A model generated the notes under the pieces. The model was not told where the DNA came from, did no database searches, and saw nothing but the letters and a program-made list of their open reading frames with translations. 64,000 nt of DNA from assembly GCA_900319925.1 (NCBI GenBank), contig ONQE01000001.1, forward strand, positions 8,452 to 72,451, in the 5' to 3' direction. This document shows, piece by piece, positions 6,061 through 56,957 of this stretch; the first letter of the stretch is position 1, and every line of letters begins with the position of its first letter. The translations under genes were made by a program, and so were the position numbers. This DNA comes from an uncultured Bacteroidales bacterium (GTDB lineage Bacteria > Bacteroidota > Bacteroidia > Bacteroidales > WCHB1-69).

Positions 6061-6081
6061 AGACTTAAGACTTGGGACTTA
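6061..6081. repeat. Heptamer array, family F (AGACTTA AGACTTG GGACTTA)
   Basis: Three clear units plus two degenerate ones extending to 6095. Contains the stop codon and last codons of ORF 6079-6657. Lies 36 nt upstream of the M16 start. Confidence 0.5.
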
Positions 6082-6657
6082 AGAGGGTTGGGATTCGTCC
6101 AGTAGCTCGTCGATTTCCTCGCTAAGCTCGTCGTAGCGTTTCGTCACCTCCCGGGTTCTTTTGCGACCAAAGGGACCATTTAAGAATCCAATCCATATAA
6201 TCATGGAGAAGCAGGCTATGCGGTCGTAAAAAAAGAGGAAAACTTCAGACACCAGAAACAAAATGATACCGATTATTCGGATGATGGTGCGTTTGCGCTT
6301 CGAGTAGGTCTTTAAACTTTCTCGCAGCGAGAGGAGACCTTCGCGGCTCTGCACGTCGGCCTTCCGGAGACCAATTATGGCGAAAAGGCTGTCAACCGCT
6401 ATCCAAACAAAGTACAGGTCGCACAAGAGGATAAGCCACCAAGGCCACTTGATGAGAGTGAGAGCGACGGTTAAGGCAATCGTGATGACTACAGCCGCTC
6501 CTGCGAGAAAAGCGTTTAGCCAGTAGAGTTCATTGCTGGACTGTTTCACCGTCTCCCGCCATGCGTCATTGTTGAAGCTGCTGTGCTGCTCCACATTCTG
6601 CTGCAGGTCGTGCAGTTCCTGCTGCAGTTCGCTTTTGATGTCTTCGTACTGTTCCAT
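6079..6657 (-). CDS. 4-TM membrane protein, putative ECF sigma partner (paralog 2)
   Basis: 192 aa with the same architecture as 2114-2683. The N-terminal 28 aa are identical, the membrane part has diverged, and the motif LRKAD.QSREGLLSLR is shared. Confidence 0.6.
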   Translation of the reverse strand: MEQYEDIKSELQQELHDLQQNVEQHSSFNNDAWRETVKQSSNELYWLNAFLAGAAVVITIALTVALTLIKWPWWLILLCDLYFVWIAVDSLFAIIGLRKADVQSREGLLSLRESLKTYSKRKRTIIRIIGIILFLVSEVFLFFYDRIACFSMIIWIGFLNGPFGRKRTREVTKRYDELSEEIDELLDESQPS

Positions 6658-12655: not shown

Positions 12656-12690
12656 TAACTGCTAACTACTAACTACTAACTGCTAACTAA
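12656..12690. repeat. Heptamer array, family A in reverse orientation (TAACTGC TAACTAC x2 TAACTGC TAACTAA)
   Basis: Five units ending 2 nt from the rho stop codon. Read in the rho sense it is AGTTAGC/AGTTAGT. Confidence 0.85.
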
Positions 12691-12692
12691 AA

Positions 12693-14606
<1,914 letters not shown>

Positions 14607-14710
14607 TTTTTGATGATAAAACTTGCATTGGATTTTTCGCCACGGCACGGAAGGCAATCGACTGCCGACCCTGTTTTGCCCGTCGCGGAGCATCTGTTTG
14701 AATTGCGCTG

Positions 14711-16280: not shown

Positions 16281-16329
16281 AGTTAGCAGTTAGTAGTTAG
16301 CAGTTAGCAGTTAGTAGTTAGTAGTTATA
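16281..16329. repeat. Heptamer array, family A (AGTTAGC/AGTTAGT), 7 units
   Basis: Hand-parsed. Starts immediately after the terminator T-run. Confidence 0.9.
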
Positions 16330-16344
16330 CACTAGCGAGAAACC

Positions 16345-16445
16345 CCATAACCCATAAGCCATAAGCCATAACCCATAACCCATAAGCCATAAACCATAAA
16401 CCTTAACCCATAAACCATAACCCTTAAACCTTAAACCTTAAACCA
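16345..16445. repeat. Heptamer array, family B (CCATAAC/CCATAAG/CCATAAA/CCTTAAC/CCTTAAA), 14 units plus a partial unit
   Basis: Hand-parsed. The last partial unit (CCA) directly abuts the folP ATG at 16446. Confidence 0.9.
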
Positions 16446-19581: not shown

Positions 19582-20784
19582 ATGAATAGAAACGATTTTC
19601 CCATATTGAATGAAAAGGTGTACGGCAAAACCCTCGTCTATTTAGACAATGCCGCCACCACGCAGAAGCCGCAAGTGGTGATTGACGCGCTGAGCGACTA
19701 CTACCGGCGCATCAACAGCAACATCCATCGCGGCGTGCACTGTCTCAGCCAGTTGGCGACCAACGAGTTCGAGCAGGCGCGCGAGGCGGTGCGGCAGTAC
19801 ATCCACGCAGCCTCGACACAGGAGGTCATTTTCACGCGCGGCGCGACCGAGTCCATCAATTTGGTGGCAGCCTCCTTCGGGCGCACCTACCTGCACGCGG
19901 GCGACGAGGTCATCGTTTCCGAAATGGAGCACCACTCGAACATCGTGCCGTGGGAGTTGGCCTGCGAGGACCGCGGCGCGACGTTGAAAGTGCTGCCGTT
20001 CAACGATAAAGGGGAGCTGATGCTCCGGGAATTGGAGACCCTGATAACCGAGCGCACCAAGATTGTGGCCGTGGCGCACGTCTCCAACTCGTTGGGCACC
20101 GTCAACCCGATTGAGGAGGTCATCCGCATCGCGCACAGCCACAATGTACCCGTCCTTATCGACGGAGCGCAGGCCGTAGCGCACTGTCCTGTGGATGTGC
20201 AGGCCCTCGACTGCGACTTCTACTGTTTCTCCGGCCACAAGATGTACGCCCCGATGGGTATCGGCGTAATGTACGGCAAAGCGCAGTGGCTCAACGAGAT
20301 GCAACCGTATCAAGGGGGTGGTGAGATGATCAAGGACGTCACCTTCGAGAAGACGACCTACAACGAGCTGCCCTACAAATTCGAGGCGGGCACCCCGTCG
20401 GTGGGCGATGTCATCGGGCTGCGCAAGGCCATCGAATACATCGGGGGCATCGGGCTGGCAAACATTGCTGCCCACGAGCAGGAGCTGTTGGCATACACCA
20501 CGGAGAAGCTGGCGAGAATCGACGGGATGCGCTTTATCGGCGAGGCGTCGCACAAAACGGGGGTCATCTCGTTCCTCGTGGGCGACACCCATCCCTACGA
20601 TATGGGCGTACTCCTTGACCATCAAGGTATTGCAGTTCGCACGGGACATCATTGCACCCAACCGGTGATGACCCATTTCGGTATTCCCGGCACCATCCGC
20701 GCCTCCTTTGCCCTTTACAACACCTTTGAGGAGGCGGATGCGCTCGTGGATGCGGTCGTGAAAGCGAAAAATATGCTTTCTTGA
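19582..20784 (+). CDS. sufS: Cysteine desulfurase, SufS family
   Basis: 400 aa. PLP-lysine context FSGHKMYAP and active-site RTGHHCTQP. Confidence 0.85.
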   Translation: MNRNDFPILNEKVYGKTLVYLDNAATTQKPQVVIDALSDYYRRINSNIHRGVHCLSQLATNEFEQAREAVRQYIHAASTQEVIFTRGATESINLVAASFGRTYLHAGDEVIVSEMEHHSNIVPWELACEDRGATLKVLPFNDKGELMLRELETLITERTKIVAVAHVSNSLGTVNPIEEVIRIAHSHNVPVLIDGAQAVAHCPVDVQALDCDFYCFSGHKMYAPMGIGVMYGKAQWLNEMQPYQGGGEMIKDVTFEKTTYNELPYKFEAGTPSVGDVIGLRKAIEYIGGIGLANIAAHEQELLAYTTEKLARIDGMRFIGEASHKTGVISFLVGDTHPYDMGVLLDHQGIAVRTGHHCTQPVMTHFGIPGTIRASFALYNTFEEADALVDAVVKAKNMLS

Positions 20785-20837
20785 TTAGTGATTAGTGATT
20801 AGTGATTGGTGATTTGTGACTTGTGATTTGTGATGAA
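20782..20837. repeat. Heptamer array, family C (TGATTAG x3, TGATTGG, TGATTTG, TGACTTG, TGATTTG, TGATGAA)
   Basis: Eight units. The first TGA is the sufS stop codon, and the last units contain the GTG/ATG start of the next gene. Confidence 0.9.
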
Positions 20838-24942: not shown

Positions 24943-25146
24943 ATGAAAAAGAGACTGAAACTTGGACTTATTGTTTGCGTATTATTGTGTATATCAACAT
25001 CTTGCGCAAGAAAGATCAGCGGTGCCACCCCGCACCGTCGCGACCGCAACTGCGGCTGCGAGAACCTTTACCCAATGTACAATTTACAATGTACAATGTA
25101 CAATTTACAATGTACCAATCACTATTCACTAATCACCAATCACTAA
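24943..25146 (+). CDS. Possible small lipoprotein-like upstream ORF (67 aa)
   Basis: MKKRLKLGLIVCVLLCISTSC looks like a signal peptide with a lipobox-like end. The C-terminal third is encoded by heptamer arrays. Its stop overlaps the next ATG (TAATG). Nearly leaderless relative to the promoter box, so coding status is uncertain. Confidence 0.25.
   Translation: MKKRLKLGLIVCVLLCISTSCARKISGATPHRRDRNCGCENLYPMYNLQCTMYNLQCTNHYSLITNH
25074..25115. repeat. Heptamer array, family D (AATGTAC/AATTTAC), 6 units
   Basis: Hand-parsed. Confidence 0.9.
25117..25144. repeat. Heptamer array, family C in reverse orientation (AATCACT ATTCACT AATCACC AATCACT)
   Basis: Four units running into the ATG at 25146. 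Confidence 0.85.
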
Positions 25147-25898
25147 TGAAGAAACTACTGTTACTGATAACCGCCGCCCTCATGCTCGCGGCGTGCGGCG
25201 ACCGGAAGACCTCCGTGGTCATCTCGGGCGATATCCAAGACGGTGGCAACAGCAAGATGGTGTTGGCGCTCATCACGACCGACGGATTGAACTTTCTGGA
25301 TTCCACCAACTTGAAGAACGGGCATTTTGAGTTCAAGGTCTCCTCCGACAACGAGCTGGTCAAGGAGCGCGATAACGCCCCGATGCTGTTCCAATTGTTC
25401 CTTTCTGACGACAACTGCCTGTCCACGATGGCCAAAAAGGGCGAGCGTCTGACCATCACCGCCGACGCGAAGGACTTGACCCGCACTTACCACATCTCCG
25501 GCGGCGAGGAGGCGGTGCTGATGCAGCAGTTAGACAGCGCGCTGACCGCCTTTGTGGTTCCTGTGGAGAAACTGCTCGAACCCTACAACGAGAACATTCA
25601 GAATGACTCGGTCCGGGCGGCCATCGAAGCCCAATATGTGCCGATGGTGCAACGGCATCGGCAATATTTAGAGGATTTCATTAAAGAGCACCCGAACAAT
25701 ATGGCCAGCTATATCGCTTTCTACCAGAGCTATAACCGGCGGACTTTCTTCGATCCGCTGCAGGATTTGGAGCTGCTGAAACAGATCAACGCCAACATGT
25801 CGAAGATATACCCCGAGAGCGAATATGTGAAAACGATGATTCATGTGGCGGAGATGATGGAGTCTCGGCAACCCGCCGAACCATCCACACCAAAATAA
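25146..25898 (+). CDS. Lipoprotein, DUF4369-like N-terminal domain
   Basis: MKKLLLLITAALMLAACGD (lipobox). The ORF-track extension back to 24936 is read-through of repeat DNA. Confidence 0.6.
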   Translation: MKKLLLLITAALMLAACGDRKTSVVISGDIQDGGNSKMVLALITTDGLNFLDSTNLKNGHFEFKVSSDNELVKERDNAPMLFQLFLSDDNCLSTMAKKGERLTITADAKDLTRTYHISGGEEAVLMQQLDSALTAFVVPVEKLLEPYNENIQNDSVRAAIEAQYVPMVQRHRQYLEDFIKEHPNNMASYIAFYQSYNRRTFFDPLQDLELLKQINANMSKIYPESEYVKTMIHVAEMMESRQPAEPSTPK

Positions 25899-28897: not shown

Positions 28898-29047
28898 AAG
28901 GATTTACTCAATCCACGAGAAACGAGAATCCACCACAACCCTTTCCCTGTTCTGCATCTCCAAAACTGCCTCGCCTCCGGCACATACCTCGTGAAGATCA
29001 ACTTCGAGCGAGGGGTGAGCGTGGTGAGGAAGGCGGTGCGGAGTTAG
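28898..29047 (+). pseudogene. Orphan 3' fragment of a T9SS C-terminal sorting domain
   Basis: The frame ends ...LHLQNCLASGTYLVKINFERGVSVVRKAVRS*, which is the terminal strand pattern of a Por secretion tail. There is no upstream gene body. Confidence 0.45.
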
Positions 29048-29076
29048 CAGTTAGCAGTTAGTAGTTAGCAGTTGGT
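29042..29076. repeat. Heptamer array, family A (AGTTAGC x2, AGTTAGT, AGTTAGC, AGTTGGT)
   Basis: Five units. The stop codon of the CTD fragment lies in unit 1. Confidence 0.85.
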
Positions 29077-41827: not shown

Positions 41828-41876
41828 TTAATAATTTGGTATTATACATTAAGAATTTATATACAATACTACTCAA

Positions 41877-41915: not shown

Positions 41916-42082
41916 CACAACCTTTTTATATACAGTCCGTTGCATTAAAAGTGCCCTAAAATAGGGAGTTTTCAAAGATATAAACAAAAAAATGAGTATG
42001 AGAAAATTACAGCGTTACCAACATTAAAATGTTCATAAAATGGCGAGTTTTCCAAATAACGCAAGTTACGGTTTCAAATCTT

Positions 42083-42322: not shown

Positions 42323-42429
42323 TTTCAACAGCCATAATAATCATAGAGAATAAAATTTTATCTCTATTAAAATAACAGATTTTGCTGAATTGGTTTTTGT
42401 TTGACGGCCGCTTACATTCATCTTTTTTG

Positions 42430-42437
42430 TATTTTTG
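42430..42437 (+). promoter_or_regulatory. -7 promoter box for rpiB
   Basis: TATTTTTG, 23 nt upstream of the ATG at 42461. Confidence 0.55.
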
Positions 42438-42460
42438 CGGCCATTATAGAATTATAGGAA

Positions 42461-42886
42461 ATGAAGATTTACATTGGATCAGACCATGCTGGAGTTGACC
42501 TCAAAACGTGCGTGAAAGAACGTTTCGGAGGCCGTTTTGAGTTTAATGATTTGGGGACTTTCACGTCTGAAAGCGTGGATTATCCCGATTTCGCCCATCC
42601 GGTGGCGGAAAACGTGTTGAAGGATAACGGGTCATTCGGCATCCTGATTTGCGGCACAGGCAACGGGATGGCGATCACGGCTAACAAGCATGCCGGCATC
42701 CGTGCCGCGCTGTGCTGGTCGCCCGACATCGCCGCGCTCGCCCGTCAGCACAACAACGCCAACATCATCGTGTTGCCCGCCCGCTTCATCTCTCCTGAAA
42801 CCGCCATTGAAACGTTCGAGGCTTTCTTCAGTGCGCAGTTCGAAGGCGGAAGGCATCAAAGAAGAATAGACAAAATCAACCTCTGA
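42461..42886 (+). CDS. rpiB: Ribose-5-phosphate isomerase B
   Basis: 141 aa. MKIYIGSDHAGVDLK and ICGTGNGM. Confidence 0.9.
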   Translation: MKIYIGSDHAGVDLKTCVKERFGGRFEFNDLGTFTSESVDYPDFAHPVAENVLKDNGSFGILICGTGNGMAITANKHAGIRAALCWSPDIAALARQHNNANIIVLPARFISPETAIETFEAFFSAQFEGGRHQRRIDKINL

Positions 42887-42888
42887 TT

Positions 42889-44001
42889 ATGAAACCGCCC
42901 TTTTCAGACCAGGATTTCGAGAGCATCCGCAGGAAAGCCTACGCCCTTCGTCATAACTACTTTGACGATATGGAGAAGTATTTGCTCAACCTTGAGGCCG
43001 CCCTGCAGCGGAAAGGTCTGGATGTGTTGTGGATCAAGGACAGGGATTCCCTGACCGATTCCATCAACTCACTGGTTGGCAAACTGAATGTCAGACGGAT
43101 GTCTTTCGATACGGAGATTCCGTTCGAGCCGGTTTTCCAGAATCGTGCCGAGATTGTTCCTTTGGAGACAGAGGAAACTTCCTCGGATGATTTGGACTTG
43201 TTGGTCATCAACGCCGATTTGGCGGTTTGTGATTCCGGTTCGCTGGTTTTTTTGGACAGAAAATCGCAATGCTGTTTCAATAAAGTCAAAAATTTGGCGG
43301 TCATTGTCAATATAGACCAATGCGTCGCCTTTCAACAGGATCTCTCCTTCTTCATCGCTTTGAAGTATGCGTTCAAAGAAAACAAGATGCCGTTGGATAT
43401 CAAAGTGGTGCAGGAAAAGGCCAATTACGTGTTGCCTTCCGATTTCTCCTATCTCTCCGACCAGATGTTCACCCAAGAGGCTATGAACATCACGGTAATT
43501 CTCTATCTTAATGATATAGAGGATATTATAACGTCAGAAATCTTGAAGGAGTCATTGTATTGTGTCCAATGCGGACGTTGTCTTGAAGTTTGTCCTGTGG
43601 CCTCTTCGCATGACAATATCTCCCCGATTGATTTGATCAAGTTGAACAGTTTGGACAGGTATAACAAGTCGCAGCATCTTTTCTCCCACACGACGCTTTG
43701 CGGTGCTTGCGAGTCGGTGTGCCCGGTGAAGATTCCGTTGATTCGTTTGATGCTTTCGGAGATGCAGGTGTCGAATATGGTGGTTAAACCATCTCGCGCT
43801 AAAATGCTCTATTCGTTGTTCTCCAAACGTAGTAAACTGAACAAATTCAATAATTCGTTCTTGAAATTTTTCTTCATAAAGCGATTCTTTGGCAGAAATA
43901 AGAACTTGAACCGCTACTTTTCAGGTCAAAACAGTGATTTTTTCAATATAACCTACGAACCTCCATACGAAGACAATCCGAATGAACTCATCAAAGATTG
44001 A
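42889..44001 (+). CDS. LUD-domain/4Fe-4S dicluster protein (LutB-like)
   Basis: 370 aa. Two ferredoxin-type motifs, CVQCGRCLEVCP and CGACESVCP, follow an N-terminal LUD-like region (INADLAVCDSGSLVFLD). Confidence 0.6.
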   Translation: MKPPFSDQDFESIRRKAYALRHNYFDDMEKYLLNLEAALQRKGLDVLWIKDRDSLTDSINSLVGKLNVRRMSFDTEIPFEPVFQNRAEIVPLETEETSSDDLDLLVINADLAVCDSGSLVFLDRKSQCCFNKVKNLAVIVNIDQCVAFQQDLSFFIALKYAFKENKMPLDIKVVQEKANYVLPSDFSYLSDQMFTQEAMNITVILYLNDIEDIITSEILKESLYCVQCGRCLEVCPVASSHDNISPIDLIKLNSLDRYNKSQHLFSHTTLCGACESVCPVKIPLIRLMLSEMQVSNMVVKPSRAKMLYSLFSKRSKLNKFNNSFLKFFFIKRFFGRNKNLNRYFSGQNSDFFNITYEPPYEDNPNELIKD

Positions 44002-47000
44002 ACTCTTGAATGACAAAATCAGGCAGTTTTTGAAGAAATTCTACCTGGACAAACTGTACAAAGGGATTATTCTCTTTGTCATCATTTTATTGGCTACTTT
44101 CATAGCCTTTTCCCTGTTTGAGTACTTCTCCTACTCGAACACGGTAGTCCGTTCTATCCTTTTCTATTCGTTCATTGCCCTTGCCGCTGGGATCGGTATA
44201 GCTTACATTCTCATACCTGCGTTGAAAATCGGCGGACTTGGAAAACAGTTGACCAATGAAGAGATAGCGGATATCATTGGTAGGCATTTCGACCAAATAG
44301 ATGATAAATTACTGAATCTATTTGAGTTACAGAAACAGATGGAGCGTGGTGACTATCAAAGTTACGATTTGCTCACCGCTGCTATTGACAGTAAGATAGA
44401 TTCGTTCAAGGCTTATTCGTTTGTGCAGGCCATACCTGTGGAGAAAACCAAGCGTTTCGCCCTTTGGATGTTGCTTCCGATTGCGATTTTTCTGCTGTTG
44501 TTCTCGATAAAGAAAGAGTTGTTTACGGAACCGACCAAGCGTATCGTACATCATACGGAAGTTTACGAGAAGCCTGCCCCTTATTCGTTCATTATCACCA
44601 ATGACACCTTGAACGCTTTCCAATATGAGGATTTTACAGTCAATGTGAAAGTGGAAGGCAGCGAAGTGCCTGACGAGGTTTATATCAAGTATAAGAACCG
44701 TAACTACAAATGTCAGAAAAACGCCAATTCGGAGTTTTCGTACACGTTTACGAATTTACAGCAAAATGTAGATTTTCAGATTAATACGGATGAAGTGACG
44801 TCCACTGTTTACGAAATCAAGGTCCTGCCAAAACCGGTGATGCTCGGTTTCAATATGTCGTTGCATTATCCGTCGTATCTCAACAAACCGGATGAAGTGT
44901 TGGAGAACGTCAGTAATGTTACGGTTCCTGAAGGTACGCAGATTACTTGGAACTTCATCACCCGTAATTCAGAAAATCTTATACTCATAGTTGATGATAA
45001 TCAAAAGGTTATATCATCTGATAAAGATAATTATCTCGTAAATGTAACCGCCCGCAACTCCTTTACGTATTCTATTCTGAATAAAAATAAATTTATGACA
45101 GGTAAGGATACGCTGACAGATGAGGTGACCGTTATCAAGGACATGTACCCTGAGATTTTCGTGCAGTCCCAGCAGGATTCCGCGTACCATGACCGTGTCT
45201 ATTTCAAAGGTAACATCAAGGATGACTATGGTTTTACTAAATTAGTCTTTGTCTATAACAAACTTGACAAAGATGGTAAATTATTGTCTTCCAATACAGT
45301 AGTGCCTATTAAAATACAAAATGGCGTTACTATTCAGGACTTTTATTACTACTTTGACCAAAGTATGTTCAATCTCAATCCTGGCGAGCAGATTGAATAT
45401 TACTTCCAAGTATTTGATAATGATGGTGTTAACGGTGCAAAATCAACTAAATCATCCGTTCAAAGCTATAGAGTGCGCACGATGGATGAGATAGAGGAAG
45501 ATATGCACAACGCTGAAGAACAGACTAAGTCTGATTATGCTGATTTGTTGAAAGAATCCAAAGATTTAGCCAAGGAAATCGAAAAGATGCAGCAGAAGAT
45601 GCAGCAGGAAAAAGAACTTTCTTGGCAAGACAAGAAGAATTTGGAGAAGTTGATGAAGGATTATCAGAAGCTTCAAGATCAAATCAACGAGCTCAAGCAA
45701 AAGCAGGAAAACCATCAGCAGGTTGAAAACCAGTATAAACAGATTGATGAAGATATCTTGAGAAAGCAGCAGGAGCTTCAAAAACGGATGGATGAAATCC
45801 TTTCGGATGAGATGAAGCAGATGATGAAGGAGCTGGAGCAGATGATGCAGAATATGGATAAGGACAAAATCCAGCAGCAGATGGAGAAGATGAAGCTTTC
45901 TTCGGAAGACATCAATAAATCCTTGGATCAGCAACTTCAGTTGTATAAGCAGTTGGAAGTGGAGAAAAAACTGAATGAAACGGTTAACAAGATGCGTGAC
46001 TTGGCCGATGAACTGCGTAAAAACGCTGCCAAGACTGAAGACAAACAGAACTCCAAAGAATCGCTTCAAAAACAACAGCAGGAGCTTCAAAAGAAGTACG
46101 ATGATTTGAAGAAGGATATTCAGGATTTAAAGCAGATGAACAATGAACTTGAAGATCCGACTGATTTTAAGGATAACCAGGAGCTTCAGAAGGATGCCGA
46201 CCAAAATATGCAGCAGAGTCAGCAGAATTTGGAAAAAGGTAATCGTTCAAAGTCTGCTGACAACAAAAAGAAGGCAGCTGATGATATTGATCAGATGGCC
46301 GAGCAGATGGAACAAGACTTCAACGAAAGCCAGTTGGAAAGCATAACCGAGGATATAGCGACGATACGTCAGATATTGGACAACTTGGTCAAGATTTCCT
46401 TCGATCAGGAGGATGTAATGAAACGTGCTCAAAAGATGTCTTCCTATTCTGCTTCTGCTTCCGATGTTATGCGCAAACAATTCGAGGTGAAGCAGACTAT
46501 GAAGCACATTGAAGATTCTTTGAGTGCGTTAGCGCGTCGTCAGGCTGCTGTGAAGCCTTTCATCCAAAAAGAGGTTACCAAAATCCAGAGTAATATAGAG
46601 ACTTCACAAACGGAGTTACAGAACCGTCGTATGTCCATGGCTGCCAAAAATCAGCAATTTGCTTTGACTTCGATGAATAATCTTGCTTTGATGTTGATGG
46701 AGTCCATGAACGATATGCAGGATCAGCAGAAGCAGAGTCAGTCGAAATGCAACAAGGCAGGTAATGGATCCTGCAATAAGCCTGGTGGAAAAGGTAAGTC
46801 AAAGAAGGCTTCTGCGCGGGAATTGCAACAACAATTAAACCGTCAGATGGAAGCGATGAAGAAGTCTATGGAGCAACAGGCGAAACAGGGTCAGACCGGG
46901 CAGCCAAAGAGTATGAGTGAGCAGTTCGCCAAAATGGCGGCGCAGCAAGAGGCTATCCGGAAGATGTTACAGGACTATCAATCCGAGCAGAAACAATTGA

Positions 47001-47335
47001 ATGGGGTAGGGGATAAGGCATTGGACAAGATCATTGAGGATATGCAAAAGACAGAGAAGGATCTTGTGAATCGTCAGATTACCCAACAGACCATTAATCG
47101 TCAGAAAGACATTACCACACGTTTGTTGCAAAGCGAGCGTGCGGATATGGAACGTGAAAAAGACAATGAGCGTAAATCGAATGAGGCAAGACAGGTACCG
47201 AATATCAATCCTCCCAAGGATTGGAATTTTGACCGTCAGCAGATTCAGCAGAATGAGATGTTGCGTTCTGTGCCCGCGAACTTGAACTATTACTATAAGT
47301 CCAAGGCGAACAACTATTTTTATAACATTGATTAG
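43982..47335 (+). CDS. Large membrane-anchored coiled-coil protein (DUF4175-like)
   Basis: 1117 aa. Two N-terminal TM segments, a beta-rich middle, then roughly 550 aa extremely rich in Q/K/E/M/D. 20-nt overlap with the upstream gene. The family name is from memory only. Confidence 0.6.
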   Translation: MNSSKIELLNDKIRQFLKKFYLDKLYKGIILFVIILLATFIAFSLFEYFSYSNTVVRSILFYSFIALAAGIGIAYILIPALKIGGLGKQLTNEEIADIIGRHFDQIDDKLLNLFELQKQMERGDYQSYDLLTAAIDSKIDSFKAYSFVQAIPVEKTKRFALWMLLPIAIFLLLFSIKKELFTEPTKRIVHHTEVYEKPAPYSFIITNDTLNAFQYEDFTVNVKVEGSEVPDEVYIKYKNRNYKCQKNANSEFSYTFTNLQQNVDFQINTDEVTSTVYEIKVLPKPVMLGFNMSLHYPSYLNKPDEVLENVSNVTVPEGTQITWNFITRNSENLILIVDDNQKVISSDKDNYLVNVTARNSFTYSILNKNKFMTGKDTLTDEVTVIKDMYPEIFVQSQQDSAYHDRVYFKGNIKDDYGFTKLVFVYNKLDKDGKLLSSNTVVPIKIQNGVTIQDFYYYFDQSMFNLNPGEQIEYYFQVFDNDGVNGAKSTKSSVQSYRVRTMDEIEEDMHNAEEQTKSDYADLLKESKDLAKEIEKMQQKMQQEKELSWQDKKNLEKLMKDYQKLQDQINELKQKQENHQQVENQYKQIDEDILRKQQELQKRMDEILSDEMKQMMKELEQMMQNMDKDKIQQQMEKMKLSSEDINKSLDQQLQLYKQLEVEKKLNETVNKMRDLADELRKNAAKTEDKQNSKESLQKQQQELQKKYDDLKKDIQDLKQMNNELEDPTDFKDNQELQKDADQNMQQSQQNLEKGNRSKSADNKKKAADDIDQMAEQMEQDFNESQLESITEDIATIRQILDNLVKISFDQEDVMKRAQKMSSYSASASDVMRKQFEVKQTMKHIEDSLSALARRQAAVKPFIQKEVTKIQSNIETSQTELQNRRMSMAAKNQQFALTSMNNLALMLMESMNDMQDQQKQSQSKCNKAGNGSCNKPGGKGKSKKASARELQQQLNRQMEAMKKSMEQQAKQGQTGQPKSMSEQFAKMAAQQEAIRKMLQDYQSEQKQLNGVGDKALDKIIEDMQKTEKDLVNRQITQQTINRQKDITTRLLQSERADMEREKDNERKSNEARQVPNINPPKDWNFDRQQIQQNEMLRSVPANLNYYYKSKANNYFYNID

Positions 47336-47346
47336 TATAACTGTTT

Positions 47347-47766
47347 ATGATAGAGATTTTACTTACTGATTTGAACAATGAGAATTTTTACAGGGAGACG
47401 CTGAAAACTATCGAATCCATTTGCGATGAGTATTCGATAGGGGAGCATTTCGGTACGTTGTCCATGGCCAACCAGATGATATGTGACTATCTAGAGTCGA
47501 AGTCATCTGTTGTAGCGAATGTGGCGTTTCGTATCGACAGTGATGAAGTGTCATTTGACTATTCTTTGACGAATGGCGACTTCAGTTCCTTCTCCCAGGG
47601 TGATGAAGCGGATAACACAAGTATGTTCGTCTTGAGACGTCTGGCGGATGAGGTTTCCTTTTCAACTGATTATGATACCCTTACAACCACTTTCCACGTG
47701 AAAACAAAAATGACGGTCCATAGAAATCCGCAACGAGTGGCTGTAAAATCTAAAATCTTCAGTTGA
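47347..47766 (+). CDS. Hypothetical protein (139 aa)
   Basis: ORF in operon context. No family recognised. Confidence 0.45.
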   Translation: MIEILLTDLNNENFYRETLKTIESICDEYSIGEHFGTLSMANQMICDYLESKSSVVANVAFRIDSDEVSFDYSLTNGDFSSFSQGDEADNTSMFVLRRLADEVSFSTDYDTLTTTFHVKTKMTVHRNPQRVAVKSKIFS

Positions 47767-47769
47767 TAG

Positions 47770-48816
47770 ATGAAGAACATAGTATCGCTAATATTATGTT
47801 TGTTTTGCTCCATTTGGGTATATGCCCAATCGAGTAGGGTGTTGTTCATTGGTAACAGTTATACTTCAGTCAATAACCTTCCAGAGTTAATCTCTCAAAT
47901 TTATTCATCCACCGGAGAGAGTATGGAATATGTCATGAGTGCTCCCGGTGGCTGTACCTTTCAGCAACATTGCTCGGTATCGCTTCCCTACATTCAGCAA
48001 GGAAATTGGGATTATGTCGTTTTGCAGGAACAGAGTCAGTTGCCCTCCTTTCCAGAGAGCCAGTTTATGCAGGAGTCCTATCCATACGCACAAGAGTTGT
48101 GCTCTTTGATAAGGCAATACAATCCGGATGCAAAGATTATGTTTTATATGACGTGGGGTCGCAAGAATGGTGATCCGCAAAACGGACAGTATTATCCACC
48201 TCTGAATACATACGAAGGTATGGACAGTTTGTTGCATGCTCGCTATTTGATCATGGCAGAGGACAATGATGCTTGCGTTTCCCCTGTCGGAGCCGTATGG
48301 CATTCGATACGTGACCAATATCCTGACATGGAACTATATCAGTCAGACGGCAGTCACCCTTCCTATTTTGGATCATACGTGGCTGCTTGTTCTTTCTATA
48401 CATCCTTTACCGGCCGAAATCCGCTCGATATTCAATGGAATGGTACTCTTGATGGTCCGTCCGCTGATATCGCCAAGAATGCGGCAAAAAGGGTTGTCTA
48501 TGACTTTCTCTCGAGTTGGTGTTTTGAAACAGACACCACGCAAATTGATTCGACGCCCGTGGTTGATAAGATAGTCGATACGGTTTATGTCTATCCTAAC
48601 CCTGCCAATACCACGCTTCATATTCATATTCCTGAATCTTTTGGTTCTGGCGGTTCTCTCATGATTTTGGGTGAGAATGTCATAGCTTACCAGCAAGTGG
48701 GTTTGGATAGCGACATTATCTTGAATGTTTCTCAATTCCCAAGTGGGTTATACTTTTTGGTCGTGAACTTAGGAGGTTTCAAACGTGCGTTTAAGAAGTT
48801 CACCATTGTACATTAG
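47770..48816 (+). CDS. SGNH/GDSL-like hydrolase with a T9SS sorting domain
   Basis: Signal peptide, block I-like FIGNSYT, DGSHP near the end of the catalytic domain, and CTD VYVYPNPANTTLHIHI...GLYFLVV. Confidence 0.6.
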   Translation: MKNIVSLILCLFCSIWVYAQSSRVLFIGNSYTSVNNLPELISQIYSSTGESMEYVMSAPGGCTFQQHCSVSLPYIQQGNWDYVVLQEQSQLPSFPESQFMQESYPYAQELCSLIRQYNPDAKIMFYMTWGRKNGDPQNGQYYPPLNTYEGMDSLLHARYLIMAEDNDACVSPVGAVWHSIRDQYPDMELYQSDGSHPSYFGSYVAACSFYTSFTGRNPLDIQWNGTLDGPSADIAKNAAKRVVYDFLSSWCFETDTTQIDSTPVVDKIVDTVYVYPNPANTTLHIHIPESFGSGGSLMILGENVIAYQQVGLDSDIILNVSQFPSGLYFLVVNLGGFKRAFKKFTIVH

Positions 48817-48818
48817 TT

Positions 48819-49241
48819 ATGATAAGTTTCGATTTTGTTTGTGAAAGCAACTTCAAGCCATCGGTAAAACACAAGATATGGCTTCAGCAAGTAATCCGCA
48901 CAGAAGGGAAAACTCCTGGTGATATTTCCTATATTTTCTGTGGTGACGAATATATGCTGGAGCGAAACATCGCCTTTTTGAATCACGACACTTATACCGA
49001 TATCATCACTTTTGACGAGTGTGTTGGAGATGTTGTATCCGGTAGTATTCTGATCAGTGTTGACAGGGTGGGGGAGAATGCAGTGATGTTTAACAAGACT
49101 TACGAAAATGAGTTTTTACGAGTCCTTGTACACGGAACATTCCATCTTTGCGGTTATAAGGATAAAACGGAATCGGAAGCTAAACTCATGCGCCAAAAAG
49201 AGGATGAGGCCTTGGCATTATTAGCTGATTCAAATTTATAA
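48819..49241 (+). CDS. ybeY: rRNA maturation RNase YbeY
   Basis: 140 aa with the metal motif [11 protein letters not shown]. Confidence 0.85.
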
Positions 49242-49285
49242 CCAATTTACTATCAGAAAATTTCGAATATTTTTCACGTGAAAAG

Positions 49286-51163
49286 ATGAGGGACTGTTAC
49301 GATATCATAGTGGTGGGTGCAGGTCATGCGGGATGCGAGGCCGCCGTTGTTTCGGCCAAGCTTGGGAACAGTGTTCTTCTCATTACGATGAACCTTGCCC
49401 TCGTGGCGCAGATGTCGTGCAACCCGGCTATTGGAGGTATCGCCAAAGGACAAATTGTTCGCGAAATAGATGCGTTGGGTGGTATGACGGGTATTGTGAC
49501 CGACCATACCATGATCCAGTACCGAATGCTCAACCGTTCGAAGGGACCCGCTATGTGGAGTCCGAGGGCACAGTGCGACAAAACAGCCTTTTCCTTGTAT
49601 TGGAAACATATTCTTGAAAATACTCCTAATCTCCATCTTCGTCAAGATACCGTGACCGAATTGTTATTTGATGCGGATAGGGTCATTGGCGTCAAGACGC
49701 AATTGGGTAAGACTGTTCTCTCAAAGAAAGTCATTCTCACTAACGGTACTTTTTTGAACGGACGTATTCATGTCGGGGAGGTTAATTTTTCCGGCGGTAG
49801 GATAGGGGAGAGTGCTTCTTTCATTTTGTCCGACCAATTGAAAGAGCGTGGCATCGTTACGAAAAAACTCAAAACCGGAACCCCTGTCCGAATTGATGGA
49901 CGGACTGTCGATTTCTCCAAAATGGAAGAACAACCCGGTGAAAACCCTCCGGGACGTTTTTCGTTCACCAATACCCCTCCTCTTCACCGGCAGCTCAGTT
50001 GCTGGATTACCTATACCAACGAGCAAGTACACCAAGTACTCCAAAAGGGTTTCGAAAAGTCCCCTATGTTCCAGGGACGCATCCAAGGTGTGGGTCCCCG
50101 TTATTGTCCGTCCATAGAAGATAAAATCGTTCGTTTCGCTGACCGTACACGTCACCAACTCTTTCTTGAACCGGAGGGACGCAATACAAATGAATATTAC
50201 CTCAACGGTTTTTCCTCCTCTCTTCCTGAAGATATTCAGGTGGAGGCCCTCCATCTGATTCCTGGATTGGAACAAGCCGAGATATACCGTCCGGGTTATG
50301 CCATCGAGTATGACTATTTCGACCCGATGCAGTTGCGTTATACGCTTGAATCGAAAATTATCGGAAACCTTTATCTTGCCGGACAGGTGAACGGAACCAC
50401 CGGTTATGAGGAGGCGGCGTGTCAAGGACTCATGGCAGGCATCAACGCACATCTCTCCCTTGCCGAAAAAGATCCTTTGATTTTGACCCGTTCACAGGCT
50501 TACATCGGTGTGCTCATTGACGATCTGATTACGAAAGGTGTCCAGGATCCCTATCGCATGTTCACTTCGCGAGCTGAATACCGCATTTTGTTGCGACAGG
50601 ACAATGCCGACCAAAGGCTTACTCCGATAGGCAATCAGTTGGGTCTGATTGATGCGGAACGCTATGAGGAATTTCTCCACAAATACGATCTGCAGACGCA
50701 AATCACCGACTACCTTCGAAGCCATACTACCCACTTTCAAACGCTCAATGAGCTGCTCGTTAAACGGGAAACTTCTCCCTTGAATCAAAATGTCAAATTG
50801 GAAAATGTATTGCTCCGTCCCCAAATCTCCATTCAGGATCTGATGGATTATGATCGTGAGTTTGCCTATTTCCTGCAACAGATTGGTGCCGATTCAGAAC
50901 AGATTACCAACGCCGAAACGAGTATAAAATACAGCAGCTATATTCAGAAGGAGGAAGAAATGGTGCAACATCTCACCAATCTCGATGCTATTAAGCTGCC
51001 TCTCGATTTGGATTATCCAAACATCAATTCTTTGTCGAAAGAGGCGCGTGAAAAGCTGTCCAAACTCCAACCCGCAAATCTGGGGCAAGCCTCTCGCGTC
51101 AGTGGTGTGAGTCCAGCCGATATTACCGCACTGATGATTTATCTTAGGACTTGTGATTTGTGA
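49286..51163 (+). CDS. mnmG: tRNA uridine 5-carboxymethylaminomethyl modification enzyme MnmG (GidA)
   Basis: 625 aa. FAD motif [12 protein letters not shown]. The last codons and the stop lie inside a heptamer array. Confidence 0.95.
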
Positions 51164-51313
51164 TTTGTGATTAGTGAGGTGTGATTTGTGATTTGTGAAT
51201 TGTGATTTGTGATTTGTGAATTGTGATTTGTGATTAGTGAGGTGTGATTAGTGAGGTGTGATTAGTGAGGTGTGATTAGTGAGGTGTGATTAGTGAGGTG
51301 TGATTAGTGGTAG
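51153..51313. repeat. Heptamer array, family C (GTGATTT/GTGATTA/GTGAGGT/GTGAATT), 23 units
   Basis: Hand-parsed and contains no C at all. It ends in six copies of the 14-mer GTGATTAGTGAGGT. The mnmG stop (51161-51163) is inside unit 2. Confidence 0.9.
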
Positions 51314-51568
51314 ATTATTCTAATGAAAGAAAATCCACTCTAAGTTAGTTATAATACATTGATAATCAATAATATATTATAAAATCATCGATTTTGTTAG
51401 CGATAATCGAAAAAAGGTGTTCTGTGTTTAAGAATCATAAAAAAGCCTGAATTCAGCGATTTTCGGTAAACTATATTGATTATCAATTATTTATACTTTA
51501 CATCCTTTTGGAATGATCTCCGATAAAAAATATTTTGGGTATTTCGGTCGCGTGAATTGAAAAATGCG

Positions 51569-51576
51569 TAATTTTG
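51569..51576 (+). promoter_or_regulatory. -7 promoter box for rubrerythrin
   Basis: TAATTTTG, 54 nt upstream of the ATG at 51631. Confidence 0.5.
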
Positions 51577-51630
51577 CAATCCGTTTCTTGGATAAGATTA
51601 TTTTACCAACAACAGTCAAAAGAATACATT

Positions 51631-52170
51631 ATGGAATTAAAAGGATCCCAAACCGAAAAGAATCTGCAAGCCGCTTTCGCCGGCGAGTCACAGGCCAGAA
51701 ACAAATACTCTTATTACGCCTCCAAGGCGAAGAAGGATGGCTACAACCAAATTGCCGCCATTTTTGAGGAGACGGCAGCCAATGAGAAGGAGCACGCCAA
51801 AATCTGGTTCAAACTTTTGCACGACGGCAAAGTGCCCGACACGGTGACCAACCTGAAAGACGCTGCGGCGGGTGAAAACTACGAGTGGACCGATATGTAT
51901 GCCGGTTTCGCTAAAACTGCCAAGGAAGAAGGTTTCGACCACATTGCCGCACTGTTCAAGATGGTTGGTGAGATCGAGAGACATCACGAGGAGCGTTACA
52001 AAAAACTGCTCGCCAACATTGAGGGCGGTCTTGTCTTCTCCCGCGACAACGATATGGTTTGGCAATGCGCCAACTGTGGCCACATCGTCATCGGCAAAAA
52101 AGCCCCTGAAATCTGCCCGGTTTGCGACCATCCGCAATCCTATTTCCAAATCAAAGCCGAAAATTTCTAA
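51631..52170 (+). CDS. rbr: Rubrerythrin
   Basis: [26 protein letters not shown] diiron domain plus a C-terminal rubredoxin-like CANCG...CPVC. Confidence 0.9.
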
Positions 52171-53981: not shown

Positions 53982-54203
53982 ATGAAATAATTCACAAGGG
54001 TCTTGAAAATCGTCCAATTCCCTCACATATAATCCGTCTAATTCCCTCACAAAGGATTCAAAACAATCCATATTTTCAATATATTGATAATCAATATTTT
54101 ATTATATGATTTAAATCCTTTTGAAGTGTATGGTCTGTCATATTTCAGGCGTGAATGAAAATATTTTCGGGTGTGAGGGATATAAAAGTGTCGCAGAAGA
54201 TAG

Positions 54204-54245: not shown

Positions 54246-56957
54246 ATGAAAAAGTTGTGTATTATCCAATGGTTGATGTTGATTTCAATTCTAACTGTTG
54301 TGGCACAGGAGCCTGCTCTTCCCTACACGGCCACTTTTTCCACGTCGGAAGGGTGGGTGCTGAACAATGGTGATGCTCAGAATTATTGGATATTAGGTAC
54401 CTCTGGCAGTAACAATGCACTCCTTGTGACCAACAACGGCGCCACCCCCACCTATTCCTACACCCGGAGTAATGTCGCTGCCGAAAAGACATTTGTGGTC
54501 GGGGATGCTGACAAGATTATTGTCTCTTTCGATCTGAAATGCGGCGGCAAGTACAACAAAGACTTTCTGAAGATGTTTTTGGCGCCTCCTTCCCAGATCT
54601 ACGAGGGTGGAATCGCCTACTCGTGGGGTGTCAGCACGGATTCCGTCTATGCGGCCAACTTCAGCGACCACTTCGATATGACCAACACGCCAAACTATCC
54701 TTATATTATCAATTTGACAGATGGCCAAACTATCCATTTGGATGTTCGGATGAACAATCCGATTGCCAATCCCGATACCAACTCAATTGCAAAACTGGTT
54801 TTTGGATGGGTTAATGACTACGGCAGCACTTACGATCACGGAATCCAGCCCGCACCTACCATCACCAATTTGCGTTTGAAAAGAGAGACCTGTACCCCTC
54901 TTACCGGATTGTCCGTCTCCAACATCCAGAGCCATTCAGTAGAGTTGTCGTGGAATATGCCTGAGGGTGGTGCCTCTGACTATATTGTCCAATATGCTAA
55001 AGATGGCCAGAATTGGAACGATGCCTATATCACCACCGTGAACGTGCAGGACACGTCTGTGACGTTGACTGGTTTGCAGTCTATAACGAAATATTGGGTA
55101 AGGGTGGCACGCAATTGCGGTAGCGATACCAGTGTCTGGATCAAACAATCGTTCACTACACTTTGTGAATATATTGACACCCTTCCGTACATCTGCGACT
55201 TATCTCATGTCTCAAGCACTATGCATCCGATTCCTGTTTGTTGGGAAAGAGGCCCAGGAAGCTGCTGCGACCCTGTTATTAGCTATGGTGCTATCAATCT
55301 TTGGATTCCCAACACCATCTCGATGCCGCATTTGAACAGACAGCTCATTGATATAAATACCGTGGAGGTTTCCTTTTCCGCCAGAAGTGAAACGAACAAT
55401 GGCACCTTGATCATTGGTGTGATGACCGATGCCAGTGCAGACTCTACGTTTGTGGCTGTTGACACGCTAAGCCTGACTACATCATACGAGTCTTATGTGG
55501 TTCCGATAAACGGCTACACCGGAGTTGGTGACAGAGTCTCTTTCAAATGTATCGACCACAGCGACATATACGTGAAAGATGTGATCCTTGACTATACGCT
55601 TTCGTGTCCAAGGCCATACGATTTGGAATCGTCCAGTCCTACGCATAACAGTATTGATTTGAGTTGGACGGGAACGAGTTCTTCCTGCAATGTTTACTAT
55701 AAAGCGGATGGTGATGCATCCTATTCGGTGGCATCCAATATTACGGCGGGTGTCGGTCAGCCGTTCACCTTGTCGGGATTGGCTTCCAGTACAATTTATC
55801 AGTGGTATGTGGCGGCTCAGTGCTATGACAGCACCGAAGCAGCAAGCCACGAGCTCAGCTTTTTCGAGACCCTTTGCGACCCCATCAACCAACTGCCTGT
55901 GACGTGGGACTTTGAATACTATAATAATGAAACAAAGATGCCTTTGTGTTGGAAAAACATAGGTGATGCAGATATTAGAGAGGGGAATGCCCATAGCGGG
56001 ACGCATTCAATGCGTTTATACAGCAATAATTCTCCGTGTTTTGTTGTGTTGCCAAAAGTGGAAAATAATCTATATCCTATTGATAATATGCAAATTAGAT
56101 TCTTTGCAATGAATACGGGTACGGTTAGCGATTTTCATGTTCGAGTCATTGGCGGGGTGATTACGAATCCGGAAAACAGTGCTACCTTTATTCCTAACGA
56201 TACAATAGATGTGATTGGTGCGGCAGGTGGAAGTTTCCAGGAATATACGTTACGATTATCTGACTATTACTATTACCCCAATGATGCCTATCCTGCGATA
56301 AAGTTTGTGGGAATTAACGGTACATGGCTTTTGATAGATGACCTTACTTTGGAAGTCGTTGATTCGACCCTTCTTCCAGACTGTCCTTCGTTGACAACTC
56401 TGGAGACAACCAATATTAGTCAGACGACTGCCACGCTGAATGCTGCCTTTGAAAATCCTGACAACATGTCTGTCTCTGCCGTGGGATTCAAATGGAAGGA
56501 TATTTCGAGCAGTGCCTATACGCAGGTTGATTGTTCCGTCTCGAATAACGTTTTTGCGACCGAACTGGACGGTTTGACTGCCAATACAACTTACGCATAC
56601 AAAGCATTTGTCACTTACTACGGAATAACAGTTCTCAGTGAGGAAACAATCTTCACCACCCTGCCCGAAAATGACACCATCGAAGACCATGTTGAAGAGT
56701 ATTTGCTAAGCAGCATCAAGCTATATCCCAATCCGGCAAATGAGTATATCGATGTACAATGTACAATGAACAATGTACAATTGGAGGGCATTGAGGTGAT
56801 AGATGTTTACGGCAAGGTAGTCCATGCCATTGTAGGGGCGAATAATCATTCGCTCCTACAGACCCGCATCAACATTTCAGGATTGGCCGGTGGCATCTAT
56901 TTTGTGCGCGTGACCACCGACAAAGGTGTGGTAATAAAGAAATTTGTGAAGAAATAA
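54246..56957 (+). CDS. Large T9SS cargo protein with alternating FN3-like and LPY..F (choice-of-anchor-J-like) modules
   Basis: 903 aa. Signal peptide, three FN3-like segments (for example LSVSNIQSHSVELSWN...YWVRVARNCG) and CTD LYPNPANEYIDV...GIYFVRVTTDKGVVIKKFVKK. Confidence 0.75.
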   Translation: MKKLCIIQWLMLISILTVVAQEPALPYTATFSTSEGWVLNNGDAQNYWILGTSGSNNALLVTNNGATPTYSYTRSNVAAEKTFVVGDADKIIVSFDLKCGGKYNKDFLKMFLAPPSQIYEGGIAYSWGVSTDSVYAANFSDHFDMTNTPNYPYIINLTDGQTIHLDVRMNNPIANPDTNSIAKLVFGWVNDYGSTYDHGIQPAPTITNLRLKRETCTPLTGLSVSNIQSHSVELSWNMPEGGASDYIVQYAKDGQNWNDAYITTVNVQDTSVTLTGLQSITKYWVRVARNCGSDTSVWIKQSFTTLCEYIDTLPYICDLSHVSSTMHPIPVCWERGPGSCCDPVISYGAINLWIPNTISMPHLNRQLIDINTVEVSFSARSETNNGTLIIGVMTDASADSTFVAVDTLSLTTSYESYVVPINGYTGVGDRVSFKCIDHSDIYVKDVILDYTLSCPRPYDLESSSPTHNSIDLSWTGTSSSCNVYYKADGDASYSVASNITAGVGQPFTLSGLASSTIYQWYVAAQCYDSTEAASHELSFFETLCDPINQLPVTWDFEYYNNETKMPLCWKNIGDADIREGNAHSGTHSMRLYSNNSPCFVVLPKVENNLYPIDNMQIRFFAMNTGTVSDFHVRVIGGVITNPENSATFIPNDTIDVIGAAGGSFQEYTLRLSDYYYYPNDAYPAIKFVGINGTWLLIDDLTLEVVDSTLLPDCPSLTTLETTNISQTTATLNAAFENPDNMSVSAVGFKWKDISSSAYTQVDCSVSNNVFATELDGLTANTTYAYKAFVTYYGITVLSEETIFTTLPENDTIEDHVEEYLLSSIKLYPNPANEYIDVQCTMNNVQLEGIEVIDVYGKVVHAIVGANNHSLLQTRINISGLAGGIYFVRVTTDKGVVIKKFVKK
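56752..56779. repeat. Heptamer array, family D (ATGTACA x2, ATGAACA, ATGTACA), inside a CDS
   Basis: Encodes VQCTMNNVQ within the T9SS sorting domain of the 54246-56957 gene. Confidence 0.8.

Follow-up and report, generated by a model that had tools for sequence, protein, structure and literature searches.

A hypervariable heptanucleotide repeat array at the 3' end of mnmG in an uncultured Bacteroidales bacterium, probably tolerated rather than used

The mnmG (gidA) gene of an uncultured Bacteroidales bacterium runs at its very 3' end into a tandem array of 7-nt units that lacks cytosine on the coding strand; a rubrerythrin gene lies further downstream. We studied this locus in a 64-kb stretch of contig ONQE01000001.1 (GenBank assembly GCA_900319925.1). 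This stretch is called the window below; coordinates are counted within it, and it is the part of the genome that our analysis covers. The locus raises the question of whether the cell makes use of such an array or simply tolerates it. We consider it likely that the mnmG tract is a hypervariable heptanucleotide simple sequence repeat (SSR), i.e., a variable-number tandem repeat (VNTR), that it is one of a genome-wide, lineage-enriched set of heptamer arrays, and that it is tolerated rather than used. The gene end and the array are organised as follows:

49286..51163, plus strand: mnmG (gidA) open reading frame (ORF) of 625 aa, with precomputed Pfam matches to GIDA, GIDA_C_1st and SAM_GIDA_C
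51153..51313, plus strand: heptamer tandem array of 23 registers with zero C, from Tandem Repeats Finder (TRF) and the register parse
51153..51180, plus strand: block 1, GTGATTT GTGATTT GTGATTA GTGAGGT, the 5' end of every allele in the strain group of the window
51161..51163, plus strand: mnmG stop codon TGA, within the second heptamer unit
51181..51222, plus strand: block 2, two GTGATTT-GTGATTT-GTGAATT 21-mers, present as a single copy in allele L003
51223..51229, plus strand: lone GTGATTT unit
51230..51299, plus strand: block 3, five exact GTGATTA-GTGAGGT 14-mers, with 3 to 6 copies among complete alleles
51300..51313, plus strand: terminal GTGATTA and degenerate GTGGTAG, a 3' boundary identical across all complete alleles

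A preliminary description of this DNA had reported a 23-unit heptamer array at 51153-51313, and both the register parse and TRF agree with it. The plus strand parses as 23 consecutive 7-nt registers, namely 22 GTGAnnn units and the degenerate GTGGTAG, which are ordered from 5' to 3' as GTGATTT x2, GTGATTA, GTGAGGT; (GTGATTT x2, GTGAATT) x2; GTGATTT; (GTGATTA, GTGAGGT) x5; GTGATTA; GTGGTAG. TRF reports period 14 (11.2 copies, 90% matches, score 174) and also periods 21 and 42, with scores of 174-192; therefore the higher-order structure of the array is real. The block formula given previously captured this 14-mer/21-mer pattern, but it sums to 22 units, skipping the GTGATTT at 51223, and of its six 14-mers five are complete GTGATTA-GTGAGGT repeats while the sixth is the degenerate GTGATTA-GTGGTAG. 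At the same score threshold, 20 mononucleotide shuffles of the window contained no period-7 array.

The base composition of the tract on the plus strand is A32 C0 G60 T69, so that G exceeds C by 60 on the coding strand and the 161 bp are free of C, as had been described. The C-free run around the array covers 51151-51319 (169 nt), and the runner-up in the 64 kb is 39 nt long.

The C-terminus of MnmG reads ..IYLRTCDL*, with its last codons TGT GAT TTG TGA at 51152-51163. About 11-12 terminal nucleotides of the ORF fall inside the array, and the residues C, D and L and the stop codon are indeed repeat-encoded, while T (ACT) belongs to the flank. The position of the stop inside the array is nevertheless incidental, because a TGA is part of every unit and the period of 7, being no multiple of 3, rotates through all three frames. 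There are 9-11 stops per frame on the coding strand of the array. An overlap with a stop codon like that of mnmG recurs at four other arrays in the window, and the supply of the stop can no longer be regarded as a special feature of this locus.

What the array does over time can be read from other copies of the locus. These were found in rumen and gut metagenome assemblies by exact-sequence look-up of MnmG and then of rubrerythrin. Fourteen locus copies from other metagenome assemblies include nine different alleles in complete form, with lengths from 91 to about 180 bp. They are written here with the unit code a=GTGATTT, b=GTGATTA, c=GTGAGGT, d=GTGAATT, e=GTGACTT and f=GTGATTC:

Window allele: aabcaadaadabcbcbcbcbcb, 22 GTGAnnn units
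Allele L004: window allele minus one bc
Allele L214: window allele plus one bc
Allele L003: window allele minus one aad
Allele L005: afe(ae)x7 babcbcbcb
Allele L215: eaeeacbcbcbcb, 91 bp
Allele L216: aeaeaeacb, then GTGAAGT, then bcbcb, 105 bp
Allele L217: aeaeececacacacacbcbcb, 147 bp
Allele L006: L214-like with an additional partial unit, 179 bp, possibly mis-assembled
L001 and L002: N gaps within the array, scaffold-estimated lengths of 254 and 302 bp
L007 and L008: contigs that terminate within the array

The successive and ongoing expansion proposed in the preliminary description is borne out by this series. Array length, far from being the same everywhere, varies among assemblies, which favours the idea, and alleles differ by whole 14-mers or 21-mers while their flanks are 99.3-100% identical. 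For instance, L214 differs from the window over 2.9 kb by one single-nucleotide polymorphism and a 14-nt insertion or deletion (indel), and L004 differs over 7.9 kb by two mismatches and one indel. Flanks are thus nearly identical where the array differs by whole higher-order units, and therefore the array mutates much faster than its surroundings. Strains with about 1.5-3% flank divergence carry other 14-mer blocks, e.g., (GTGATTT-GTGACTT)x7.

The same series speaks against the C-free asymmetry as a conserved or selected trait. C-bearing units are found in L002, L005, L215, L216 and L217; since units such as GTGACTT occur in several alleles, the C-free state is specific to the window allele and is not conserved. 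The protein, in turn, does not change: every allele recovered encodes one and the same MnmG of 625 aa ending in ..TCDL, and even L215, whose first unit is GTGACTT, has this tail, as TGT GAC TTG TGA.

The yield of such look-ups depended on the protein. The 90% cluster that holds this MnmG has a single member, and exact-protein look-ups of two poorly conserved array-flanked proteins returned only near-identical strains with identical arrays. The informative allele series came from look-ups of the well-conserved GcvH and rubrerythrin.

An assembly artefact or a chimeric collapse of repeats might also produce copies of different length, and scaffolds with N gaps, contigs that end inside the array and the odd partial unit in L006 are what one would then see. 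Yet the same boundaries and the same block order appear in more than 12 independent assemblies from different projects, and reads and k-mers of typical size exceed the internal blocks in length. We therefore hold this explanation to be hardly credible.

Under the explanation that we favour, i.e., a tolerated VNTR, the array would have started with a 7-nt duplication at the extreme end of mnmG, and the seed may have been the terminal sequence of the gene itself. When the array is collapsed to its last unit, the sequence reads ..ACT TGT GAT TAG, which gives a plausible ancestral ..TCD* end. Slipped-strand mispairing in replication would then have gained and lost whole units; it is this outcome that the alleles display, and slippage is its presumed cause. 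Point mutations within units (T>A, TT>GG, T>C, T>A) were amplified in their turn, followed by slippage in 14-nt and 21-nt steps, a stage whose outcome the block structure and the allele series show.

With a TGA in each unit and a period not divisible by 3, every reading frame closes within three units, whatever the copy number, and therefore a change in copy number alters at most a 3-residue non-conserved tail of MnmG. The rubrerythrin regulatory region downstream is untouched; thus the array is likely tolerated rather than used.

Relatives allow a further comparison. Our set comprised 80 loci, about 600 kb, from other Bacteroidota and other genomes; the species of the window is not among them, and the best MnmG identity is 85%. 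The nearest species representatives are metagenome-assembled genomes of uncultured rumen and gut Bacteroidales with MnmG identity of 76-85%. MnmG orthologs end in ..IYL(R/K) followed by 0-7 non-conserved residues. In six of eight close relatives no array follows mnmG, and a conserved TTGATAATCA-like palindrome is found there about 10-30 nt past the stop. The comparison of MnmG C-termini that had been suggested before thus confirms a shared ..IYL(R/K) end with the array mostly absent, but two relatives do have heptamer tracts at this place. L009 (85% identity) has a decayed C-poor heptamer tract of about 82 bp that starts from its mnmG TGA (4856-4937), made up of units such as GAGTAGG, AAGTAGG, GAATAGA and GATTAGG. 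In L018 an array of unrelated sequence, ACAGGTT x4.6, begins 7 nt past the mnmG stop (4859-4900). As relatives mostly lack the array and two of them have other heptamer tracts, the site has been occupied repeatedly or anciently, and the array is dispensable for mnmG and rubrerythrin. No sign of a function turned up at the mnmG locus, where the array is, most likely, tolerated rather than used.

A strict period-7 scan of the approximately 600 kb from the 80 other genomes found two short arrays only. Some relatives proved, in a lenient pass with TRF and on reading by eye, to have arrays at stop codons that are short or decayed; therefore the strict scan understates the arrays in relatives. Repeats were also seen near another gene of this neighbourhood. 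TTGAAMC x2-4 lies 1 nt past the TAG of rubrerythrin-1 in L010 (5655-5683), L011 (5703-5724) and L012 (5691-5705), and CTATAA-type repeats overlap the rubrerythrin-1 TAA in L009 (near 5760) and L037 (near 5705).

Does the array, then, act on the rubrerythrin operon? Two elements of the spacer are relevant here. TAnnTTTG is the consensus of the Bacteroidetes -7 promoter element.

51359..51369, strand not assigned: palindrome TTGATAATCAA, which in relatives stands about 10-30 nt past the mnmG stop; it is context and does not belong to the repeat
51568..51575, plus strand: TAATTTTG, which matches TAnnTTTG and is conserved upstream of rubrerythrin in relatives

In the window the TTGATAATCAA palindrome is located about 200 nt further downstream, displaced by the array and by 45 nt of other sequence. 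From the end of the array there are 255 nt to the TAnnTTTG box and 318 nt to the rubrerythrin ATG, and two conserved palindromes lie between. As a separate observation, the palindrome TTGATWATCAA has nine matches in the window (at most one mismatch) versus 1.6 expected, with sites at 51359-51369, 51476-51486, 54084-54094 and 19236-19246. A TTGATWATCAA pair flanks the region upstream of the rubrerythrin operon, is conserved in relatives and represents a candidate operator.

These distances bear on phase variation, in which copy number would switch or grade expression of the rubrerythrin operon, or would alter the C-terminus of MnmG. The copy number is highly polymorphic, the array is in the spacer upstream of an oxidative-stress gene, and expression-controlling heptamers are documented in Haemophilus influenzae (PMC8262952). 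However, the array is separated from the TAnnTTTG box and from the rubrerythrin ATG by the distances just given and by both conserved palindromes, and MnmG is identical in every allele, including those obtained via the rubrerythrin look-up. Moreover, mnmG and rubrerythrin are housekeeping and stress genes rather than surface or restriction-modification genes, and the genes next to other arrays (tilS, folP, rho, an aminotransferase gene) show no contingency-gene theme. Phase variation is accordingly very improbable. The position at the 3' end of mnmG, the constancy of MnmG across alleles and the 255 nt to the -7 box all speak against a phase-variable contingency locus. We rejected a promoter-spacing switch, with the TAnnTTTG box 255 nt downstream of the array end and beyond two conserved palindromes.

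Several other identities were considered. An Rfam 15 search of 50800-51900 (E <= 1) returned only ROSE_2, at 17.8 bits versus a threshold of 65 bits (E = 0.95) and outside the array. A terminator scan of 50900-51800 found no intrinsic terminator on the plus strand, the mnmG-rubrerythrin spacer included, and matches in a scan for sigma-70-type promoters were at chance level. The sense RNA of the array folds no better than its shuffles (z = -0.69). The G-quadruplex subclass of heptamers, which needs four or more tracts of at least three G with short loops between them, was rejected: the longest G run is GG, which occurs only in GTGAGGT at 14-nt spacing. A CRISPR array, with repeats of 24-48 nt and unique spacers, was rejected too, as the 7-mers are contiguous and without spacers.

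A replication origin deserves a separate word. The mnmG (gidA) gene often adjoins oriC. In the spacer after mnmG (51164-51630) there is no match to TTATCCACA with at most one mismatch, and an origin at this place was rejected. Elsewhere in the window, a DnaA-box cluster at 42083-42322, in the metG-rpiB spacer (41828-42460), has four matches (at most one mismatch) in 240 bp, one of which, at 42251, is a perfect TTATCCACA; over the whole window, 24 such matches compare with 13 expected. With a local minimum of cumulative GC skew close by, this cluster, which lies about 9 kb from mnmG, is a candidate chromosomal origin. The region 42000-50000 has a G+C content of about 41-44% versus about 50% elsewhere in the window, and it encodes a 1117-aa protein whose only Pfam match is a weak DUF4175.

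The mnmG array is not alone in the window. A strict scan for periods 2-9 found 11 arrays, all of them at period 7, and TRF adds two shorter ones. The other arrays are listed below; T9SS stands for the type IX secretion system.

6061..6084, minus strand: short TAAGTCT array that contains the stop of the gene at 6079..6657
12656..12689, minus strand: AGTTAGC-family array, 4 nt past the rho stop codon
14805..14884, plus strand: CCTTAAA/CCCTTAA/CCCATAA array, G-free, between the divergent rho gene and the gene of a T9SS-tail protein
16281..16327, plus strand: AGTTAGC-family array, directly 3' of a terminator-like site of a hairpin and T6
16344..16445, plus strand: CCCATAA/CCTTAAA array that ends at the folP start codon
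19552..19578, plus strand: TTAAACC array that holds the tilS stop, with the next ATG 3 nt on
20782..20834, plus strand: GTGATTA/GTGATTT/GTGACTT array that provides an aminotransferase gene with its TGA and directly adjoins the ATG of the gene after it
25073..25115, plus strand: CAATGTA array, stop-free in all frames and translated as the tail of a small lipoprotein ORF
25117..25147, plus strand: GTGATTA-type array in reverse orientation (AATCACT) that ends at the ATG of a lipoprotein gene
29042..29073, plus strand: AGTTAGC-family array that provides an ORF fragment with its TAG; by eye only, the end of this fragment resembles a T9SS C-terminal sorting domain
56752..56781, plus strand: CAATGTA-family array, in frame within the T9SS C-terminal domain of a 903-aa protein

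Copies of two of these arrays could also be compared. In eight strains whose flanks are 98-100% identical, the length of the 20782 array varies from 35 to 77 bp; none of them has lost the TGA or the ATG. The 27-bp 19552 array is invariant in the 10 locus copies compared (L089, L090, L218-L225).

Some details of these regions are worth recording. The rho gene (12693..14693, minus strand) has heptamer arrays on both sides and contains a 92-nt A-free run (14024-14115), presumably in its low-complexity N-terminal region. In the spacer 16224-16445 beside rho, a terminator-like hairpin is followed by two different arrays back to back. Upstream of a small lipoprotein ORF, 24702-24857 holds about 14 copies of a 10/11-mer (AACTCCGATAC and variants); over 6.4 kb, the near-identical contig L219 differs from the window by nothing but a 21-nt indel in this array.

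Several points weigh against the explanation that we favour. Firstly, unit families recur in the window (GTGATTA type at three loci, AGTTAGC at three, CCTTAAA/CCCATAA at three, with the TTAAACC array at 19552 counted here, and CAATGTA at two), which local slippage alone fails to produce. Secondly, the arrays tightly hug stop and start codons, and pure local slippage gives no explanation for this. Some sequence-specific seeding, spreading or selection must therefore stand behind the recurring units and the boundary placement. Shared flanks around arrays of the same family, as a sign of a mobile element, were not seen by eye, except for a common start register of the three AGTTAGC arrays. Thirdly, the mnmG array is present in all 14 examined loci of the species of the window and the 20782 array in all eight strains examined, so that a benefit of mere presence is possible. 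Finally, all alleles come from short-read metagenome assemblies, in which single copy numbers could be mis-assembled, and the longest lengths are only scaffold estimates.

Another explanation would take the units as sites for a DNA- or RNA-binding protein. The ctxAB promoter of Vibrio cholerae carries TTTTGAT heptads. By analogy, the array might be bound by a nucleoid or regulatory protein or, as RNA, by a binder of the S1, Csp or RRM type such as has been suggested for TAACTGA repeats. This would explain why a few unit families recur at many loci of the window; it fits with arrays abutting start and stop codons and with the persistence of the 20782 array in all strains despite its turnover. 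A binding partner is also invoked in hypotheses on the TAACTGA repeats (PMC4679880) and on the Nostoc heptamer (bioRxiv 10.1101/2022.06.06.494920). We nevertheless find it quite improbable: units drift between strains (GTGATTT, GTGATTA, GTGAGGT, GTGACTT, GTGAATT, GTGAGTT), copy number spans at least a 3-fold range, most relatives have no array at mnmG, and no candidate binding protein was identified.

A strand preference is apparent as well, in a sample of only 12 arrays. On the mRNA strand, post-stop arrays are G/T-rich and C-poor (AGTTAGC, GTGATTA), and pre-start arrays are A/C-rich and G-free (CCTTAAA, CCCATAA, AATCACT). We scanned metagenomes for GTGA-N3 arrays with crude ORF calls; the matches listed, 129 arrays, are on contigs of 29-73% GC from many habitats. 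Among these listed arrays, 29-30 of the 55-56 that come after a co-oriented ORF are within 10 nt of its stop or overlap it, and so is 1 of the 40-41 in the opposite orientation. Stop overlap accounts for 16-17 of the 129 arrays, on unrelated metagenome contigs; this class is partly built into a pattern that contains TGA, whereas the 0-10 nt class is not.

Placement of this kind would suit a directional Rho element. Rho loading sites are C-rich, G-poor and unstructured over 70-80 nt or more. In such a model the antisense RNA of the array would be a Rho loading site and would stop antisense transcripts that come into mnmG from the direction of rubrerythrin, while the C-free, G/U-rich sense RNA would escape Rho after the ribosome leaves the stop codon; copy number would tune the strength of the element and not its identity. 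The antisense array RNA (169 nt, 0% G, 37% C) is fully unpaired in the predicted fold and has the composition of a Rho utilization (rut) site, composition being the only property compared; the sense strand is C-free, and no intrinsic terminator was found between mnmG and rubrerythrin. G-rich arrays on the coding strand just past the stop are found in the window, on unrelated contigs and in published heptamers (PMC4692102). But there are alleles with C-bearing units, and the locus can do without an array, since mnmG is followed by none in six of eight close relatives. Besides, the arrays that are C-rich on the sense strand and precede start codons (16344-16445 and 19552-19578) would terminate the very genes they precede. 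We consider the Rho element improbable.

Related units also turned up in viruses. A search of a viral collection for GTGATTW x4 found 14 viral contigs, and the exact 28-nt higher-order unit had no match in that collection. L229 (IMGVR_UViG_3300006321_000055) and L236/L237 (IMGVR_UViG_3300006226_000108) have 12-15 heptamer arrays in 12-20 kb, with the units TTAGGTG, TTAGGGG, TTAGTGG, TTAGTGA and CAACTGA; in IMGVR_UViG_3300006226_000108 the arrays often form convergent pairs about 30-70 nt apart. Since GTGATTA/TTAGTGA units occur in viral contigs, the unit is not specific to this Bacteroidales bacterium. The viral occurrence of GTGATTW and TTAG-type heptamers hints that the unit repertoire is shared across lineages.

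A broader reading, extending beyond this lineage to the class as a whole, would take heptamer arrays as products or tools of a transcription-linked process rather than of random slippage. It is suggested by the G/T-rich post-stop arrays, by the A/C-rich, G-free pre-start arrays, and by TTAG/TGA units shared with unrelated bacteria and some viral contigs. Possible candidates for the process are a shared sequence-specific factor, R-loop-driven expansion where translation and transcription uncouple, and orientation-specific control of Rho loading. If this reading were true, the arrays would be strand-specific insulators or unstructured leaders. We think it unlikely on the whole, though worth keeping in mind, and prefer to regard the mnmG tract as a tolerated VNTR.

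A tolerated VNTR has its uses for the investigator. The array is a ready strain marker for an uncultured rumen or gut Bacteroidales bacterium, and it is also a reason for caution, as assemblies of this organism break at such arrays. The natural allele series at several loci provide material on the origin and turnover of higher-order units. A herbivore-gut Bacteroidales lineage joins the scattered list of heptamer-rich bacteria, and with it come questions that concern the entire class: what favours a length of 7 nt, what makes the same units recur at many loci, and what places them where genes end.

How does this array compare with the heptamer repeats already known? The 7-bp repeats upstream of hmw1A and hmw2A in H. 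influenzae control phase-variable expression (PMC8262952, PMC2424069). These repeats and the TTTTGAT heptads of ctxAB share with the mnmG array tandem heptamers whose copy number varies among strains. They are, however, placed in the promoter or 5' leader of a virulence gene, where they grade its expression, whereas the mnmG array is found where a housekeeping gene ends, with over 250 nt between it and the next promoter element.

Long SSRs at large offer a further comparison. According to the summary of Mrazek et al. 2007 given in PMC4679880, heptamers are the most abundant long SSRs, polymerase slippage has been proposed for them, and their abundance may reflect the footprint of the polymerase. 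In so far as PMC4692102 and PMC4679880 summarise them, the cyanobacterial short tandemly repeated repetitive (STRR) sequences and the long SSRs of Mrazek are like the arrays of the window in favouring period 7, in their sporadic phylogenetic distribution and in slippage as the proposed generator; these summaries mention no Bacteroidales example.

MacGregor 2015 (PMC4679880) described arrays of TAACTGA and other heptamers in Beggiatoaceae, Cyanobacteria and five Bacteroidetes; there, too, strains differ by 7-nt indels and contigs break at the arrays. The TAACTGA repeats are likewise intergenic and abut start and stop codons, and long mixed arrays are found in Gramella, Aequorivita and Elizabethkingia. 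The AGTTAGC family of the window is TAACTGC on the other strand, one mismatch from TAACTGA, while the mnmG units GTGATTT, GTGATTA and GTGAGGT are unrelated to it. The BOGUAY repeats of the same study mostly have 2-6 copies upstream of start codons, in contrast to the 22-23 post-stop copies at mnmG.

Close counterparts are the heptamers described by Rehm et al. 2015 (PMC4692102), GGGAATC in Xanthomonas and GGGGAYT in Nostoc PCC 7120. These are intergenic and, on the coding strand, follow stop codons at a distance of 0-50 bp, stop overlaps included; their length and sequence vary between close relatives, and no function was identified. The arrays of the window resemble them in the dispersal of same-family arrays, intergenic bias, G-richness of the coding strand, post-stop position and polymorphism, and in both cases the neighbouring genes come from all functional classes (PMC4692102). 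With 22-23 units, and longer alleles known, the mnmG array is at the long end of the range reported there, the longest perfect Nostoc example cited having 26. It is unlike those heptamers in that the units of the window have at most GG and so no G-quadruplex potential, that several unit families coexist, and that the host belongs to Bacteroidales. Since a stop-hugging placement on the coding strand recurs here without G-quadruplex potential, the quadruplex explanation of the placement in Xanthomonas and Nostoc is weakened. The mnmG array shows all four features tested: many 7-nt units, dispersed kin arrays, G-rich post-stop placement on the coding strand, and polymorphism among close relatives. 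In these features it matches the already described class of dispersed bacterial heptamer repeats represented by those of Xanthomonas, Nostoc and TAACTGA.

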